NCBI GenBank assembly: GCA_002070355.1 | Contig: MWDC01000001.1 | Coordinates: 67,994 to 131,993, forward strand | Direction: 5' to 3' | Source of the DNA: Parcubacteria group bacterium ADurb.Bin159 | Lineage (GTDB): Bacteria; Patescibacteriota; Patescibacteriia; UBA2591; MWDC01 | DNA length: 64,000 nt | Shown here: positions 7,322 through 56,367 of the stretch, piece by piece | How positions within the stretch are numbered: position 1 is the first letter of the stretch | How the letters are laid out: every line of letters starts with the position of its first letter | Notes under the pieces: generated by a model | The model's database searches: none | What the model saw: only the letters and a program-made list of their open reading frames with translations | Told to the model about the DNA's origin: nothing | Made by a program: the position numbers and the translations under genes

Positions 7322-7543
7322 TTAAAGCTCTTCTTTCTGGAATTTTATTTCCTGCGTTTCATCTAATTTTCTAAGAAGTTTAGTTAATTCTGCCACATGC
7401 TCTTTTTCGTCATTTCTAATATGACTTAAAATTTTTTTGATTTCTTCTTCACTCGCTTCATCTATATGCTCTTGATATTGATTAATGGCTCCCAATTCTC
7501 CTATTAAATCCTCTCTTAAATTTTTTAAATCTCTATTGTTCAT
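7322..7543 (-). CDS. Small ferritin-like/rubrerythrin-like two-helix protein (tentative)
   Basis: Paired ELGAINQYQEH and EKEHVAEL motifs (E..E..H-type half-sites). Confidence 0.3.
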   Translation of the reverse strand: MNNRDLKNLREDLIGELGAINQYQEHIDEASEEEIKKILSHIRNDEKEHVAELTKLLRKLDETQEIKFQKEEL

Positions 7544-7625
7544 ATAATATATGTTTTATATTTTAACGACCTTTTATTTATTTTATATTATAACAAATTT
7601 TAATAATTAGCAAAATAAAAACCAA

Positions 7626-9113
7626 TTAATATGCTTTGGCGAAAATAACTTTTTTTGATGCTCTTTTCCCACAAACAACACACTTGCTCTCTTCGCTTTT
7701 TTCTTTCTCATCTAATATGCATCTAATGGTGGCGGTAGTTTCTTCTTTTACTTTGTCCTCGCATTTTGAATCACCACACCAATAAGCATTTATAAAACCA
7801 TCTTGTTCGCTTTTAGTAAATCTGTTTTTTAAATCTTTATAAGAATTTACCTGAACAGTTAATTCTTGGCTATATTGTTTAGCGCGATTATAAAGATTTA
7901 ATTGTATATCATCTAATAAAATCTTAATCTCTTTAATTAAAGTGTTTATGTGAATTTCTGTTTTTACTCCTGTATCACGCCTTACTGCTACCACAGTATT
8001 ATTTTTAACATCACGAGGGCCAATCTCAATCCGCAAAGGCGTGCCTTTCCTCTCCCATTCATAAAATTTTGAACCCGGCCGTTTATCTCTCTCATCAATA
8101 TAAACATTATAATTTGTTTCTGAAATTATTTTGTCGGCTGTTTCCTTGGCTTTAGCCACAATAGGTTCTTTCTCGTAATTCTTATCCCAAATAGGCACTA
8201 TAACTATAGGAGTAGAAGCAATTTTAGGCGGCAAAATTAATCCTTTATCATCACTATGTGTCATTATTAATGCTCCAATAACCCTTGTGCTCATTCCCCA
8301 GCTTGTTTGCCAAACATATTGCTCTAACCCCTTTTCGTCGGCAAATTTAATATTAAAAGCTTTAGCAAAATTTTGACCAAGCATATGAGAAGTGGCTAAT
8401 TGCAATGCTTTGCCGTCCTGCATCATTCCTTCTATGGTGGCGGTATAAACCGCCCCGGCAAATTTTTCATTTTCAGTTTTTATCCCCGTAATTGCCGGAA
8501 TGGCCAAATAATCCTCCACAAAATTATGATAAAGTTCTAATATATCTCTGGTCATTTCGTCTGCTTCTTTTTTTGTAGAATGAGCAGTGTGCCCTTCTTG
8601 CCATAAAAATTCTGTAGTTCTTAAAAATGGTCTTGTTCTTAATTCCCAACGCATTACATTAGCCCATTGATTTAATATCAAAGGAAGATCTCGATAAGAT
8701 TGTATCCATTTGGCATAGGTGTGATAAATTATCGTTTCCGAAGTTGGTCTAATAATATACGGTTCCTCTAACAATCCAGCGGGAATTAGTTTTTTATCCT
8801 TTGCCACTAAACGATGATGTGTAACCACAGCGCATTCTTTGGCAAATCCCTTTACATGTTCAGCCTCTTTTTCAAAAAAACTTTTGGGAATAAGAAGGGG
8901 GAAATAAGCGTTTCTTACCCCTTTTGATTTAAGCATAGCGTCTAAAATTTTTTGCACATTCTCCCATATAGCATAACCGTTTGGTTTAAAGACAATGCAA
9001 CCCTTTACCGGTGAATTCTCGGCAAGTTCAGCTGCTTCTATTATGTCCAAATACCACTCTGAATAATTTTTAGACCGCGGAGTAATTTTGTATTGACATT
9101 CTTCTTGTTCCAT
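7626..9113 (-). CDS. proS: Proline--tRNA ligase, archaeal/eukaryotic-type class II
   Basis: The YSEWY N-terminus, class II motifs, and the C-terminal zinc-binding ...CVVCGK... end characteristic of the short ProRS type. Confidence 0.85.
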   Translation of the reverse strand: MEQEECQYKITPRSKNYSEWYLDIIEAAELAENSPVKGCIVFKPNGYAIWENVQKILDAMLKSKGVRNAYFPLLIPKSFFEKEAEHVKGFAKECAVVTHHRLVAKDKKLIPAGLLEEPYIIRPTSETIIYHTYAKWIQSYRDLPLILNQWANVMRWELRTRPFLRTTEFLWQEGHTAHSTKKEADEMTRDILELYHNFVEDYLAIPAITGIKTENEKFAGAVYTATIEGMMQDGKALQLATSHMLGQNFAKAFNIKFADEKGLEQYVWQTSWGMSTRVIGALIMTHSDDKGLILPPKIASTPIVIVPIWDKNYEKEPIVAKAKETADKIISETNYNVYIDERDKRPGSKFYEWERKGTPLRIEIGPRDVKNNTVVAVRRDTGVKTEIHINTLIKEIKILLDDIQLNLYNRAKQYSQELTVQVNSYKDLKNRFTKSEQDGFINAYWCGDSKCEDKVKEETTATIRCILDEKEKSEESKCVVCGKRASKKVIFAKAY

Positions 9114-29585: not shown

Positions 29586-30412
29586 CTCCTTCTTAACAGC
29601 TTCCAAGGATGCTCTTTAATATCCTTGGTTAGTTCTTCCAAATCAGAAACTATTTCTTGTACCTTATTATCTCCAAAAATCTGATTTATATTGTCTGCTG
29701 TTGTTTCTATTTTTTCACTTGCTTGATCAAGTTTGATTGATGCATTTTTCAAGTTAGTTATAGTTGCTTTAAGATTACTCTTTAGTAGAGAATCCCCCAC
29801 AATTTCATTCAGGTTATCAACCAATACTCTTGCACTTACCATAACCCCCTGGATTTCGTCTTCTATCTCGCCTATTTTATAGGCGTTTCTTTTAATTTCT
29901 TCGTCCCCTATAATTTTATTTAGAGAGACGAGAAATTCTTGAACTTGGCGAAGAGCGATTCTCATTTCTTCTAAACTAATCTCTCCTTTTTCCCCGAGAT
30001 CGGTTAAACTAACCGTAGTTTTACCGGGTAAAACACTTTTTTGTTTTAAAATATCTCCGGAATTGAAATTCGGGGGGATTATCTCAAGATATTTCTCCCC
30101 GAATAGTCCTTGAGCACTAATAGTGGCTATTGAGCCCTTAGGGACTTTTATTCCTGATTCTATCAAAAAAATTACCTCTATCTCATCAGATGAAGAGATA
30201 ATTTCTTTAACATAGCCGACCTCCTCACCTCTAAACCAAACCGGGGATTTTTTTTTCAACCCAGAAATATTCTCAAAAGTCGCTTTTAATTCGTAATAAT
30301 GTGACTTTTCATCAAAAAATCCCATCTTCCAAGAAACCAGTAAAAACAAAAGGAAGACAGCGAAAAGGATAATTAGCGCTATTATGCTAATCTTGAATTT
30401 TTTTCTTCTCAT
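29582..30412 (-). CDS. MlaD-like MCE-domain protein
   Basis: N-terminal TM followed by an MCE domain (YELKATFENISGLKKKSPVWFRGEEVGYV). Confidence 0.6.
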   Translation of the reverse strand: MRRKKFKISIIALIILFAVFLLFLLVSWKMGFFDEKSHYYELKATFENISGLKKKSPVWFRGEEVGYVKEIISSSDEIEVIFLIESGIKVPKGSIATISAQGLFGEKYLEIIPPNFNSGDILKQKSVLPGKTTVSLTDLGEKGEISLEEMRIALRQVQEFLVSLNKIIGDEEIKRNAYKIGEIEDEIQGVMVSARVLVDNLNEIVGDSLLKSNLKATITNLKNASIKLDQASEKIETTADNINQIFGDNKVQEIVSDLEELTKDIKEHPWKLLRRR

Positions 30413-31151
30413 CTTTTACCTCCGTATTAAATAATTCGGGGAAAATGTCCAAAGATTGAAGTACTCTATCTTTCCAAGAGTTATCCAATTCTTTGATTTT
30501 TCCCTCTTTTAGAAGAATAAATCTCTGACCCAAAGAAAGAATATTTCTTAAATCATGACTAACGATAATCGAAGTTGTCCCTTCGTCTTTATGGGCATAT
30601 TTTATAAGCTCAATTATATTGTTTAGAGAAATAAGATCTAAACCAACGGTCGGCTCATCATAAAGAAGAATCTGGGGGGAATAAATTAACGCCCTTGCAA
30701 TTGCCACCCTCTTCTTCATCCCTTCGGAAAGTTGGGAGGGAAATAAATCTTCTGTTCGCGCCAATCCAACCCTTTCCAATATTCGCTCAACCCTCTTTCT
30801 TGTTTCACCACCTGAAAGGTTAGCATGTTCTCTCAAAAAGAATTCCACATTTTCTTTCACGGTCAAAGAATCAAAAAGGGCTGAGGTTTGGAAAACCATT
30901 CCCAAATTAGCCCTCATTTTGTTTAATTCAAAGGGGTCCAAATCGGAAATGTTTTTTCCTAAAACTATTATCTCTCCTTTATCAGGAAAGAGTAGTCCCG
31001 CTATTAACTTCAAAAGCGTGGTTTTCCCACAACCAGAAGGGCCCACAACAACCAAGCATTCACCTTCTTTAATCGACAAATCAAGATTCTCAAAAATTGT
31101 TTTTTCTCCAAAGCTTTTTGACACTCTTTTAATTTCAATTATATTTTCCAT
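30387..31151 (-). CDS. ABC transporter ATP-binding protein, MlaF-like
   Basis: GPSGCGKTT (Walker A), LSEGMKKRVAIARAL (signature), ILLYDEPT (Walker B). Confidence 0.75.
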   Translation of the reverse strand: MENIIEIKRVSKSFGEKTIFENLDLSIKEGECLVVVGPSGCGKTTLLKLIAGLLFPDKGEIIVLGKNISDLDPFELNKMRANLGMVFQTSALFDSLTVKENVEFFLREHANLSGGETRKRVERILERVGLARTEDLFPSQLSEGMKKRVAIARALIYSPQILLYDEPTVGLDLISLNNIIELIKYAHKDEGTTSIIVSHDLRNILSLGQRFILLKEGKIKELDNSWKDRVLQSLDIFPELFNTEVKDEKKKIQD

Positions 31152-31164
31152 TTATTCCTCCCTT

Positions 31165-31863
31165 CTAAAATGAAAAAGCAAAGCAAAAATTAATCAAAAA
31201 AATCGCCACAAAAGAAAAAATTACTGTTTTTTCCACGGCCCTTCCCACACCCCAAGCGCTTTCTTGCTCTTTCTCAAGATTAAGGCCACAAGAACAGGAA
31301 ATAAGAGCAATAACTCCGCCGAAAACAATGGCTTTTAACATTCCTTTTATTAAATAAGAAAAGTTAAAAGCGGATTTAGCTAAATTAAGAAAAGTCTCCA
31401 TATTCACGCCCATTGATTGGGCAACCAAATATTCGCCAAAAAAACAAGCAAACACAGCGAAAATGGTCAAGCCCGGCATCATGATAAGGCAGGCAATAAA
31501 TTTGGGGAAAACCAAATATTGCCAAGGAGTCACGGCTAAAGTTTTTAGGGCGTCAATTTGTTGGCCAACTTTCATGGAAGCCAATTCTGCAGCGTAGGCA
31601 ACCCCAATACGGCCTACTGCTATTAAGGCAGTGATTAAAGGCATAAGTTCCCAACTTACACCCATGGCTACCGCTCCCGTAAGCGCGGATAGACCATATC
31701 GTATAAAATAGACATTAACCTCAAATCCGTATCCCATACCAATCAAAAACCCGACAATTGAATTAAGTAAAAATGTTTTATCTATTCTATACAATTCATC
31801 CAAAAGTTCTCGCCGGAAAATCATTCTCACGATCTTAACCACGATCCTCCACATTTTTTTCAT
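31165..31863 (-). CDS. ABC transporter permease, MlaE-like
   Basis: Multi-TM protein with a ...GVAYAAELASMKVGQQIDALKTLAV... segment. Confidence 0.65.
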   Translation of the reverse strand: MKKMWRIVVKIVRMIFRRELLDELYRIDKTFLLNSIVGFLIGMGYGFEVNVYFIRYGLSALTGAVAMGVSWELMPLITALIAVGRIGVAYAAELASMKVGQQIDALKTLAVTPWQYLVFPKFIACLIMMPGLTIFAVFACFFGEYLVAQSMGVNMETFLNLAKSAFNFSYLIKGMLKAIVFGGVIALISCSCGLNLEKEQESAWGVGRAVEKTVIFSFVAIFLINFCFAFSF

Positions 31864-32382
31864 AGCATCCTCCTTTATTTTATTTTTTTTTTAATTTTAA
31901 AGAACATCTGTTTGAGCGTTAACGCCCAATTATAATAAAATTTTATTTTAAAAAAGAGGGTTGGATTTATGTCCCCCTCCCGCATTCTATCTCTGTAAAA
32001 CAGGCCTCTTTTTTTATTTTAATTTTAATTTAACTTTTGATTAAAGTATAAAAAAATTTCGTATTTTGTCAATAAAAAAAATTTTAATGGGGTCAGACCC
32101 CCAAAATGGATCGCTTGAAACCCTTTATTTAAGCGGGTTCCCAAGGGAAAATTTAAATTTGGCACGATTTTGATTGATTTGAAAAATGGCAAAGCATTGT
32201 GGATAACATTAGAATATACTAGATGACCACAAGAGAATTAATTGCGATGCCAATCTATGTTTAATATCCCACTACGCTACTTATAAGTCTTTAAATTTAG
32301 CTTTATTATATCAGATTTTACCCCCCTTGTCACTCACTATTATTTTAAATAATAAAACATTAATTCTTCCATAAAAGAAATG

Positions 32383-32416
32383 GCCCTCGCTCGGAATTGT
32401 ATCCAAGCGAGAGCTC
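32383..32416 (-). terminator. Terminator hairpin for the GC-rich ORF
   Basis: ctcgctcgg-N13-ccaagcgag hairpin followed, on the minus strand, by a T-rich tract. Confidence 0.45.
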
Positions 32417-32482
32417 TGGTGTTGAAAGAACGTGTTGCTTCAGCTGATGCTGAGTAAAGCAGGATTTAGTACGCCGCCGCTT

Positions 32483-33085
32483 TCATTTGGCTTCCTCTCC
32501 CTCATTCCCGATCTGGGTTTTGAGATTGTGCCAGCGACGGAGTTGCTCTCCGTGAATCCATACCTGCGAAAGGATGGACACAGCACAGCTATACACGAAT
32601 CCTGTGATGCCTTCGTTATCGGCAAGCTGAGACGCTTCTTCAGCGCATCCTTCGACCGTATCGCCGTTTGCGATCCGACCTTCCATTAAGCGAGCCCACC
32701 GCTCAGCGAAGCGAATAACTGCACTTCCGTATCCGTCGGTGTTGGCAGCCACAATTTTCTTCCAGCCTTCCTCGTCCCGAAGCGTCATCTTCTCGGGAGC
32801 AGTCATGAGAGCTCCTTCGAGTATGAGATTGTGGCGTCGCTGAGCTTCGTCAGCTTTGCGTTGCCGTTCCTTATACTCTGGAGAATTGACATACTCCTCG
32901 TGACGACGATTGGACTCAGCGCTGTAATACTTCACGATCGCATCGGCGTTATCGCCAGGGTTGGCTGTGAGTTCGATGTCATTAAACTTCGCCCTCACAA
33001 TTCCCTTCGTCTTCTTGGCCATCGCAACTATTGTGCGAGCGGTTTCGCTGATGTTTTCACCAGCAAGAGGTTTATACGTCTTCAT
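32483..33085 (-). CDS. Hypothetical 200-aa protein encoded in a GC-rich (~50%) foreign segment
   Basis: Clean ORF with a strong SD (AAAGGAGAAAT) 7 nt upstream of the ATG. Its composition differs markedly from the flanks. Confidence 0.5.
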   Translation of the reverse strand: MKTYKPLAGENISETARTIVAMAKKTKGIVRAKFNDIELTANPGDNADAIVKYYSAESNRRHEEYVNSPEYKERQRKADEAQRRHNLILEGALMTAPEKMTLRDEEGWKKIVAANTDGYGSAVIRFAERWARLMEGRIANGDTVEGCAEEASQLADNEGITGFVYSCAVSILSQVWIHGEQLRRWHNLKTQIGNEGEEAK

Positions 33086-33835
33086 TATATTTCTCCTTTC
33101 GTTTAATTTCGGTTGATAATTCGTTATTTGCGGTTCGTGGCTTACTCAGTCATAGCACCCAGAAACTTCTCACCATCGAAACCATCAAGGTGATTTGAAG
33201 TGTCCTTCCTTAATAAATAATAGCATATTCCCCCTTTCAGAAACTGCTAATTTCTTAGTAATCTCTGGAAGGGAATAAGATTAGAAGTTTAAGATATTCC
33301 AACCTCCCTTATTGCTAAATTGGATCTCCGCGAGGATGATATTTCCTCTTTTTTGGCGGTGGCGAACCGATCGCGAGAGGCTTACGCCTCGGCTAATTTC
33401 TATTTATTTCTCCTTTATATCTTTATTTTATTTATCTTAAGAACTTTCTTTGGAGAGAGTTCATAATACTGGAATTTTATGGCATTTGATCTCTCTCCGA
33501 ACCAATGCCAATTCTGTTTTCTTTACTACCATAATTATAGCATATATACATAATTTGTCAAGGGCAGAAACGGCTAAAGTAGAGGCTTACCAAACCGATA
33601 AAATCTGACAAAATAAAGAAGTAGATGAAAATTTTATGAAAAAAGCGAAAAAAACCGCACTTTTGGTTCGAATATAAAAATAATTAATAGAAAACTTCGA
33701 ATTGAACCGCCAGAATCTTTTGAAATAATCGAAGAGGGACTAAAAGCGGTTCCCGAAGAAGGGCTACGTTTGAGCCCATAAAAATGGGCATAAATAAAAG
33801 GAAAAAGAGCGGTTTCTCCCGCTCTTAATCCACGA

Positions 33836-33925
33836 TGGCGGTGGGGCAGGGATTCGAACCCTGGGTGCTCTTGCGAACACACTTGCTCTCCAAGCAAGCG
33901 CTTTCGTCCACTCAGCCACCCCACC
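33836..33925 (-). tRNA. tRNA-Ser (GGA), long variable arm, CCA encoded
   Basis: Manual fold: acceptor GGUGGGG/CCCCACC, anticodon loop UU-GGA-GA, variable arm UGUGUUCGCAAGAGCAC, T-arm CCAGG-GUUCGAAU-CCCUG, discriminator G plus CCA. Confidence 0.85.
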
Positions 33926-33927
33926 AT

Positions 33928-34524
33928 CTACATTACATCTTCTTCTGTTCGTTTGTAATTATGAATTTCTTCCGGAGAAAACCAAAAATTGATTTCGTGT
34001 TTAGCTTCTTCCTCATTGCCTGAAGCATGAATGATATTACGAACCGAACGTTTTTCCCGATTAGCCATAGTAGAATCATCAACAGAAAAATCACCTCTAA
34101 TTGTGCCCATCTCTGCTTGAGAAGGCATTGTGCTTCCAACAATTTTTCTTACCATATTAATAGCATGTAAACCACTTATCACCATTTTAACTATTGGACC
34201 AGCAGTTAAATAATCAATTAACCATCCCCTAACGATTTCTCCTATTTTGATGGGGTCGTCTGTTCCTAATTCTTTTTTCGCATCAAGATGATATTCCTTG
34301 TAATTAGCCAATGTCTTTTCTCCTAAATTTTTAATGTATTCTTTGTCTTTAGGATAATGCCTATCAATTTGGTCTTTTGTCGCCCAAATCATCTCCAAGG
34401 CAATAATTTTCAACCCCCTTTGTTCAATTCGTTTAATAATTTCACCAATTAATCCCCGTTTTACTCCATCGGGTTTAATTAAAACACAGGTTTTTTCTTC
34501 TTTTAAATAATTATTAGAAGGCAT
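33928..34524 (-). CDS. ndk: Nucleoside diphosphate kinase (with an insertion)
   Basis: VLIKPDGVKRGLIGEIIKRIEQRG, NIIHASG and EINFWF motifs. Confidence 0.8.
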   Translation of the reverse strand: MPSNNYLKEEKTCVLIKPDGVKRGLIGEIIKRIEQRGLKIIALEMIWATKDQIDRHYPKDKEYIKNLGEKTLANYKEYHLDAKKELGTDDPIKIGEIVRGWLIDYLTAGPIVKMVISGLHAINMVRKIVGSTMPSQAEMGTIRGDFSVDDSTMANREKRSVRNIIHASGNEEEAKHEINFWFSPEEIHNYKRTEEDVM

Positions 34525-34673
34525 AATTAAAAAATCAAAATGTAAAATGATAAAAATAAATTAAATTTTATATTCTAAGTTCTATATTTTATATTCTCTT
34601 TTTCTCGAAGTTTCTGCTAAAAGCGGAATCCTAAAATACAAAATAATAAATCAAAAAACAAAACAACTTTACT

Positions 34674-36142: not shown

Positions 36143-36212
36143 GAGGGGACTGTCCCCTTTTTTAACCATATTTTAAGGGGGGACTTATTTTAAGGGGGGA
36201 CTGTCCCCTTTT
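36143..36212. repeat. Cluster of three GGGGACTGTCCCC palindromes with local tandem duplication
   Basis: Copies at 36145-36157, 36177-36190 (degenerate) and 36196-36208, each followed by a T-run. Confidence 0.6.
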
Positions 36213-36343
36213 TTAGGCTCTCTACAAGTCTTTATTTATGCGGCTTTCCGAGCAAATTTTTCTGTTTTGACATTTTTTTTACCTATTTTTGAAATTAAAA
36301 AATGAAAGCCAAAAAAATTTTTTATAAAAGAAAAAATAATTTT

Positions 36344-36435
36344 GGTAAAAAAAGTGTCAAATTTGATTTTTTGAGGAGATAACCCTTTATTGATGCGGGT
36401 TTGCGAAGGTCGGAAAAAGGGGACTGTCCCCTTTT
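36344..36435 (+). repeat. Repeat family B, copy 1
   Basis: ggtaaaaaaagtgtcaaatttgattttttgaggagataaccctttattgatgcgggtttgcgaaggtcggaaaaaggggactgtcccctttt. Near-identical copy at 45021-45112. Confidence 0.7.
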
Positions 36436-56204: not shown

Positions 56205-56294
56205 AATTTAGATTATAACAAAAAAGAAAAAAAGAAAAAGGGCAACTTAATGTTGCTCTTATTAAATACAATGTTTCCCCTCTTTTTTGTTTAG

Positions 56295-56367
56295 AGGGGT
56301 TGGCTGGAATCGAACCAGCATGAGCAGGCTTTCGCGCCTACTGCGTTGACCACTCCGCCACAACCCC
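56295..56367 (-). tRNA. tRNA-like gene with canonical acceptor, D and T arms but a non-canonical (6-nt) anticodon loop; isotype undetermined
   Basis: Acceptor GGGGUUG/CAACCCC, T-arm GCUGG-UUCGAUU-CCAGC. The central hairpin UAGGC-GCGAAA-GCCUG does not give a standard 7-nt loop. Confidence 0.5.

Follow-up and report, generated by a model that had tools for sequence, protein, structure and literature searches.

Thoeris anti-defence 4 (Tad4) was reportedly described by Yirmiya et al. in Cell in 2025 (doi 10.1016/j.cell.2024.12.035). Tad3-Tad6 attach to ThsB, a TIR protein, and reach into its active site with a flexible loop (PMC13402655). The characterised phage members of the Tad4 family bind ThsB of type I Thoeris and plug its NAD+-processing site, and no immune signal is formed. 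Tad4 itself is listed among the proteins that bind ThsB directly. Anti-defence homologues are also encoded on bacterial chromosomes in a non-mobile context, as described for Apyc1 (Tesson et al., NAR 2024, PMC11724313). The present analysis concerns a 200-amino acid (aa) open reading frame (ORF) of the Tad4 family, encoded in a 64-kb stretch from Parcubacteria group bacterium ADurb.Bin159 (contig MWDC01000001.1, positions 67,994 to 131,993; the whole stretch is denoted the window, and all positions without a contig label follow its numbering). Probably, this gene was acquired horizontally from a phage or another mobile element and resides in a cassette (32250-33531) that varies among strains of this Parcubacteria lineage, 304 bp downstream of a tRNA-Ser gene.

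A Tad4-family protein with two domains

A first-pass annotation made from the letters of the window was unable to place the 200-aa protein. It can now be placed: residues 100-197 match the Pfam family PF25186 (Tad4, type I Thoeris inhibitor) with an expect value (E) of 2.7e-29 and 102.2 bits, the curated cut-off of this family being 25 bits, and the match covers positions 1-101 of the 113 positions of the model. A match to phrog_9822 (E = 1.3e-31) was obtained as well. The protein consists of an N-terminal alpha/beta domain with a long helix (residues 1-99), followed by the helical domain of the Tad4 family (residues 100-197), and AlphaFold2 yields a confident two-domain model (predicted local distance difference test, pLDDT, of 95).

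The homology search proposed in the first-pass annotation was productive and uncovered, besides the Tad4 family and matches in phages, 249 relatives of the two-domain form at E <= 1e-3. In phage genomes, only the C-terminal half is detected by tblastn, at 45-53% identity; these matches belong to Bacillus phages of the Herelleviridae, a Xanthomonas phage, and Mycobacterium phage Kumao, and the homologue of Bacillus phage Bcp1 (Bcp1_225) is a stand-alone protein of 109 aa. Viral contigs of IMG/VR harbor 288 relatives, ~24 of them full-length two-domain proteins whose guanine plus cytosine (GC) content tracks that of the phage genome. Phages whose hosts have a mid to high GC content are therefore the natural setting of the family.

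For the N-terminal 99 residues, no Pfam family was found. In BFVD, the C-terminal domain matches the Kumao protein, and the N-terminal alpha/beta unit matches uncharacterised proteins of 60-75 aa from the phages phiPMW, ICP1, and others. A phmmer search of the full library with the N-terminal domain returned 271 proteins, some of them stand-alone, others joined to Tad4 or to a different C-terminal domain. Three giant proteins (P0125, 1913 aa; P0185, 1661 aa; P0264, 1494 aa) carry 4-6 tandem copies of this domain; among these giants, one shows a sub-threshold Tad3 match and one annexin repeats, and they may represent polyvalent counter-defence proteins. Since the N-terminal domain occurs stand-alone, fused, and repeated, it is regarded as a modular domain common to many proteins, several of which are phage-encoded. 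The PDB gave no match, neither by sequence nor by fold, and the plasmid database a single weak, single-domain match.

The gene lies in a strain-variable cassette

The extent of the foreign segment is defined by strains that carry something else in its place. Contigs from three other samples (L037, L046, L050, L051) have NDK and the flanks identical to those of the window (>99.8% over the flanks) but harbor, at exactly the same place, another insert, here called allele B, the version of the window being allele A. In the alignment of the window with L046, the sequences are identical from the tRNA to position 33532 with one single-nucleotide polymorphism (SNP), and identity resumes at 32249. The insert of allele B measures ~530 bp, has a GC content of 0.36, and encodes a 72-aa orphan ORF directly behind the perfect sigma-70 promoter of the upstream flank. 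A search of 5.8 billion clusters found no homologue of this ORF besides itself, and Pfam and PHROG were uninformative. The upstream junction between the alleles lies 2 nt downstream of the -10 box of the perfect sigma-70 promoter, so that the variable segment comprises 32250-33531 and the stretch of 304 bp up to the tRNA is native. Allele A is the commoner version, with 33 index blocks versus 7 contigs for allele B. The few SNPs between the flanks of the two alleles concentrate within ~50 bp of the junctions, four of them in the downstream flank, and the strains are otherwise near-clonal; homologous recombination in the flanks, swapping one cassette for another, would be expected to leave such a pattern.

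The first-pass annotation had reported a GC-rich segment spanning 32100-33835. The GC profile, computed in 300-nt windows across the 64-kb stretch (mean GC 0.33), confirms the rise, to 0.48-0.55 at ~32350-33100, but the GC-rich part is narrower and comprises ~32380-33210 and a short patch at 33300-33390; both 32100-32380 and 33400-33700 are AT-rich to the same degree as the host. The Tad4-like ORF has a GC content of 0.52 and a GC content at third codon positions (GC3) of 0.55, compared with a GC3 of 0.21-0.37 in seven flanking host genes. The suspected foreign origin is thus upheld by the alternative cassette in near-identical strains, by the phage family, by the atypical composition, and by the remnant of a donor gene described below.

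Such an abrupt change of composition is also what would result if a high-GC contig fragment had been joined into a low-GC bin, and the first-pass annotation had named assembly chimerism or contamination as its alternative. This explanation is refuted. The exact protein is recorded in NCBI, JGI, ENA, and Logan assemblies, one source listing it as hypothetical under Parcubacteria group bacterium ADurb.Bin159, and ten loci from separate samples show the order xseA / xseB / ndk / tRNA-Ser / Tad4-like gene / mlaE / ABC / mlaD / tyrS. At least ten independent assemblies, obtained from separate samples with different assemblers, span both cassette junctions with 99.7-100% identity to the window, and GCA_022705795.1 and GCA_020047475.1 are among the NCBI assemblies with identical junctions. 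Because ten loci from different samples match across both junctions, a chimera is excluded; the AT-ward amelioration of the Tad4-like gene, which is specific to the lineage of the window, likewise speaks against it.

A 20-nt inverted repeat (32301-32320 / 33599-33618) was considered as a pair of transposon ends and rejected because one of its arms sits in flanking sequence that allele B also has. Two further places near the cassette differ between strains. The 253-bp intergenic region upstream of xseA (36162-36414) is absent or replaced in L005, L006, and L007, with flanks of ~99.5-100% identity, and constitutes a second small strain-variable islet. The tract 29866-30887 (mlaD / ABC ATPase) holds all 68 differences between L010 and the window, with MlaD being only 67% identical; L010 is identical to the window over 30888-34574, and mlaD is rearranged in L002. 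This tract has the appearance of a recombination hot spot or of a diversifying surface protein.

Donor, compositional drift, and truncation

The closest relative of the protein is P0003 on contig L054, with 83% aa identity, and blastn aligns 32374-33207 of the window to 1187-2029 of L054. In L054, the homologue is preceded by a gene for a 333-aa protein, and the last codons of this gene are still recognizable in front of the ORF of the window (tblastn, 70% identity over 27 aa, E = 4e-8, at 33130-33210). No further sequence of the 333-aa gene was found in the window beyond 33130-33210, and its Pfam and PHROG annotation is uninformative. As judged from these alignments, the import of ~0.84 kb comprises the decayed 3' end of the upstream donor gene, the ORF, and the terminator. 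The first-pass annotation had described 33100-33830 as non-coding and possibly decayed. This description fits the donor-gene remnant; the rest consists of 320 bp that matched nothing searched and of native sequence, the latter holding the perfect promoter and the tRNA terminator.

The ORF had also been called a single well-formed gene with its own hairpin terminator. ORF, ribosome-binding site, and terminator were all confirmed, the terminator being strong and conserved in L054, where its stem is kept by compensatory changes. The C-terminus, however, is not intact, since a +1 frameshift cuts off ~14 conserved residues. Compared with all relatives, the window has one extra A at 32486-32488 (GCC AAA TGA, as opposed to GCC AAC GAA in L054), and the protein ends with ...EGEEAK-stop at residue 200. 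In the +1 frame, the tail of the family (ANESGGVLNPALLSI-) can still be read at 32440-32487. This tail is near-invariant: 34 relatives conserve it, and even the 109-aa protein of Bcp1 retains the NPAL core. Two other members of the family, P0040 and P0057, lack the tail as well.

The substitutions in the lineage of the window are strongly directed, with 60 GC-to-AT versus 12 AT-to-GC changes, and the GC3 of 0.55 compares with 0.74-0.81 in the relatives. The pairwise ratio of nonsynonymous to synonymous substitutions (dN/dS) against eight relatives amounts to 0.08-0.12 where computable, values that are approximate because dS (1.2-1.9) has reached saturation and is raised further by the drift in composition. 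The AT-ward drift together with the low dN/dS indicates that the gene was under purifying selection while drifting to the composition of its host.

It is conceivable that the ORF is nothing but neutral, decaying DNA from a past transfer that fulfils no function in the cell. The frameshift that deletes the conserved tail would fit this idea, as would the already decayed donor gene next to it, the replacement of the cassette in some strains, and the deviation of the protein at 7 of the 46 columns that are >=90% conserved, by which it ties for second-most deviant of 37 proteins. Against these stand a dN/dS of ~0.1 despite heavy synonymous drift towards AT, the intact remainder of the 200-codon frame with its ribosome-binding site and terminator, the higher frequency of allele A, and the two other tail-less family members. 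A dead relic is hence considered unlikely. The frameshift is either recent or tolerated, and the present activity of the truncated protein is uncertain.

Layout of the locus

The features of the locus are compiled in Table 1. On the coding strand of the cassette, no ORF of at least 30 aa exists besides the Tad4-like gene. Rfam, applied with an E-value threshold to 31800-34000 and with the gathering threshold to the whole window, reported tRNAs only, and no known RNA in the 750-bp upstream region. Two parts of the cassette, 33211-33531 (320 bp) and 32250-32373 (124 bp), gave no match in Rfam, in phages, or elsewhere in the window; repeats of these outer parts were also sought elsewhere in the window, and none was found. 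At a distance from the cassette, ARAGORN predicts a tRNA at 56294-56367 (-) with a four-base anticodon, 'cgaa', and undetermined identity (Rfam tRNA, 51 bits), which could be frameshift-suppressor-like, have an odd anticodon loop, or be a miscall.

Table 1. Features of the tRNA-Ser/mlaE region of the window, in the direction of transcription of the Tad4-like gene
Feature	Position	Strand	Basis and remarks
tRNA-Ser (anticodon GGA)	33836-33925	-	ARAGORN; Rfam tRNA 59.1 bits; native landmark outside the foreign segment
Intrinsic terminator hairpin of the tRNA	33805-33826	-	-19.8 kcal/mol, z = -4.65; native, in both alleles
Flank common to both alleles, tRNA to upstream cassette junction, 304 bp	33532-33835	.	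blastn; L046 alignment
Sigma-70-type promoter, perfect 12/12 (TTGACA, 16 nt, TG-TATAAT)	33534-33561	-	Consensus match; points into the cassette
Strain-variable cassette, allele A, 1282 bp, GC 0.44	32250-33531	.	Bounds set by the alternative allele
5' leader, AT-rich with GC-rich patch at ~33300-33390, moderately structured (z = -2.9)	33211-33531	-	No ORF, no Rfam match, no phage-genome match
Imported donor block, ~77% DNA identity to L054	32374-33210	-	blastn, alignment
Decayed remnant, last 27 codons of the donor 333-aa gene, internal stop	33130-33210	-	tblastn; DNA alignment
Ribosome-binding site AAAGGAG, 7 nt 5' of the ATG	33093-33099	-	Position conserved in relatives
Two-domain Tad4-family ORF, 200 aa	32483-33085	-	Pfam, PHROG, AlphaFold2, BFVD
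A-run with +1 insertion making a premature stop	32486-32488	-	L054 alignment
C-terminal tail remnant, out of frame (NESGGVLNPALLSIS*)	32440-32487	-	Tail conserved in the family
Intrinsic terminator, 13-bp stem, then T-rich tail	32383-32414	-	-24.6 kcal/mol, z = -6.3
Second promoter-like site (GTGACA, 17 nt, TG-TATAAT; 11/12), toward mlaE	32305-32333	-	Consensus match only
Downstream flank common to both alleles	31864-32249	.	mlaE promoter-like site inside at 32045-32072

Lone copies in other genomes and the tRNA neighborhood

Lone homologues that are much richer in GC than their surroundings recur in other genomes. On L042/L043, the gene (GC 0.58, flanks ~0.35) lies between tRNA-Arg(TCT) and fba, and the relatives of the aldolase identify the host of L042 as a member of the Parcubacteria. 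On L055 (gene 0.61, flanks 0.47), it follows a tRNA-Thr, and on L138 (0.62 and 0.55) it is found 130 bp after tRNA-Arg(TCG). The copies on L139/L140 (0.56 and 0.49) and L141/L142 (0.58 and 0.45-0.47) have no nearby tRNA, and with 487 nt of upstream sequence the tRNA context of L056 (0.61 and 0.41) is not evaluable. The homologue on L044 is located in a phage-like region with ParB and a methylase. Among the neighbors of the lone copies, Pfam and PHROG searches revealed neither a conserved partner gene nor a TIR gene.

Some of these copies have more in common than the gene. A conserved upstream block of 115-450 bp is present on L055 (5340-5783), L056 (90-486), and L042 (~7816-8000), with a promoter-like TTGACG...TATGCTATA motif and a hairpin in the 5' untranslated region. 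The same three copies share ~115-150 bp downstream of the gene despite their different host contexts, which amounts to a transferred unit of ~1.2 kb. On L042, two degenerate partial copies of tRNA ends (GTAGTTCAACTT[T/G]CCCTCCC...) are located at ~7430-7490, just upstream of tRNA-Arg(TCT) (7490-7563); they may be scars of past integration.

Integration at the 3' end of the tRNA had been suggested in the first-pass annotation for the window, which proposed looking for a direct copy of this end at ~32.1 kb. No such copy above chance was found there or anywhere else in the segment. The best match to the tRNA 3' end is a 9-mer (TGGCGGTGG at 33354), with a score of 18 versus a shuffle mean of 19.4; the 3' 50 nt of the tRNA as query likewise score 18, versus a shuffle mean of 16.9. 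No above-chance repeat of the tRNA 3' end was detected in L042, L055, and L138 either. On L040, a homologue is part of an intact small element that encodes a rolling-circle Rep and a large serine recombinase and abuts a tRNA-Gln; tblastn of this recombinase, the Rep, and the neighboring proteins against the window gave chance matches only, tyrosine and other integrases not being searched. With the junction 304 bp away, there is no support at this locus for a standard integrase insertion into tRNA-Ser.

A modified scenario is that the gene is the last cargo of a tRNA-targeting integrative element, i.e. a prophage or a small integrative plasmid, of which all other genes were deleted. In four of the six evaluable independent contexts, a tRNA is found 130-750 bp upstream in the same orientation (Ser in the window, Arg-TCT in L042, Thr in L055, Arg-TCG in L138). 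The expectation for random genes, estimated from the numbers of tRNAs and genes that the window contains, is ~5-8% (binomial P ~5e-4), which supports tRNA proximity at the level of the family, and the tRNA neighborhood of the Tad4-like gene is probably no coincidence. The intact element of L040 and the truncated donor gene adjoining the ORF would also agree with such an origin. On the other hand, repeats of the tRNA 3' end above chance are lacking in the window, L042, L055, and L138, remnants of the L040 recombinase, Rep, or neighboring proteins were not detected in the window by tblastn, and the alternative allele has the same 304 bp beside the tRNA. Moreover, the gene of L040 sits at the far end of its element in the orientation opposite to the tRNA, and L139 and L141 have no nearby tRNA. 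Reduction from a larger element is thus judged somewhat unlikely for the window; as a route of arrival it is plausible and partly compatible with the horizontal acquisition of a phage or mobile-element gene proposed above.

The lone copies allow for a further and bolder interpretation, namely that Parcubacteria repeatedly capture the phage gene for a two-domain TIR inhibitor and retain it under purifying selection, as a lone gene of the chromosome, at tRNA-proximal hot spots. An isolated GC spike of the same kind is seen at L042, an unrelated Parcubacteria locus with the order tRNA-Arg / gene / fba, and the further lone copies in unclassified genomes as well as the dN/dS of ~0.1 are in line with it. 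The protein might then be a domesticated anti-immunity factor rather than a passive prophage leftover and might tame TIR/NADase systems of the cell itself or, alternatively, serve the epibiotic interaction with the host cell. This interpretation is rated as highly speculative and improbable. If it were true, ultra-small symbiotic bacteria would put counter-immunity proteins of viruses to use for themselves, which would be relevant to the biology of the candidate phyla radiation (CPR) and to the evolution of TIR signaling. That lone copies recur under selection, in two or more Parcubacteria lineages and in several unclassified genomes besides, is the one aspect that could reward a systematic follow-up.

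Proposed history and function

Horizontal acquisition of a phage or mobile-element gene, which is favored here, would have proceeded as follows. A higher-GC donor would have supplied the ~0.84-kb block with the 3' end of the donor gene, the two-domain gene, its ribosome-binding site included, and the terminator. Judging from the sequence, transcription would start at the native, perfect sigma-70 promoter and stop at the imported gene's own terminator. Since the protein belongs to the Tad4 family, its most likely predicted activity would be to bind and inhibit a TIR-type NADase. During a long residence in AT-rich genomes, much of the GC3 was lost with the protein being conserved, which suggests that the gene served its carrier through most of this period. 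In this lineage, the +1 frameshift has removed the C-terminal tail, two residues of a core motif have been altered, and the cassette would spread or be replaced among strains by recombination in the common flanks.

Several observations weigh against this account. An empty site was sought in relatives, and none was found in an NDK genome scan and an MlaE metagenome scan. The closest relative in the former (L011, NDK 86%) shows no synteny with tRNA-Ser or mlaE, the latter returned the same species only, and the contig of L143, a close relative of L042, stops 78 nt short of the insertion site. The characterised Tad4 proteins are phage-encoded, and all matches in the phage database (32/32) are single-domain proteins, of ~109 aa in the one inspected, unlike the two-domain form of the window. 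The frameshift removes a near-invariant tail of the family that is predicted to be packed on the domain in the model of a full-length relative (pLDDT ~86), the exchanges M164V and G166S alter the GITGFMYG motif, and the dN/dS values are to be read as approximate. Finally, no TIR or Thoeris gene is present among the top defence-model matches of the ORFs of the window, which covers 64 kb of the genome, or beside any of the lone copies.

As to other defence genes, the window contains genes for a restriction enzyme of the DpnII type together with an N6/N4 methyltransferase, and genes for a UvrD-like helicase and a PD-(D/E)XK nuclease. With the DpnII-type system, this CPR genome carries at least one classical defence system.

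An ORF that had been left without a place thus receives a specific annotation as a homologue of the Tad4-family TIR inhibitors, and the suspicion of misassembly is lifted from a public metagenome-assembled genome of the Parcubacteria. The locus documents a phage-to-CPR transfer at the population level, with exact junctions, a donor remnant, and measurable amelioration. It represents a clear and instructive but fairly ordinary, not exceptional, case of anti-defence gene capture.

Comparison with known systems

The C-terminal 98 residues of the protein match the Tad4 model above the curated threshold of PF25186 and are 45-53% identical to the ~109-aa proteins of Herelleviridae. The protein differs from Tad4 in its additional N-terminal domain of 99 residues and, owing to the frameshift, in the missing NPALL tail (model positions 102-113), so that the domain is incomplete in its C-terminal G-x-x-N-P-A-L part. 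It further differs in its genomic setting, since it is encoded on a Parcubacteria chromosome with ndk, tRNA-Ser, and mlaEFD as neighbors and without mobile-element genes nearby.

In this respect, the gene resembles the chromosomal homologues of Apyc1; it likewise belongs to an anti-defence family, is located outside a recognizable mobile element, and is apparently selected (PMC11724313). The direction of transfer is different. Apyc1 is thought to be bacterial in origin and co-opted by phages (PMC11724313), whereas the composition and the viral distribution of the gene of the window argue for a transfer from phage to bacterium.

With tRNA-associated islands and prophage remnants, the locus has in common the atypical GC content, the site downstream of a tRNA, the variability among strains, and the cargo of phage origin. 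Unlike these islands, it shows neither a duplicated attachment (att) site nor a remnant of a recombinase or Rep recognizable with the L040 queries, and the tRNA does not form its boundary. The segment measures 1.3 kb, contains a single gene, and begins 304 bp from the tRNA, and its polymorphism consists of the replacement of one cassette by another instead of presence versus absence.

Replacement-type flexible genomic islets differ from the locus in that the latter is very small, has two observed alleles, and would be exchanged by a recombination deduced from the pattern of its flanks. The two have in common unrelated cassettes between identical flanks in near-clonal strains and SNPs clustered at the junctions.

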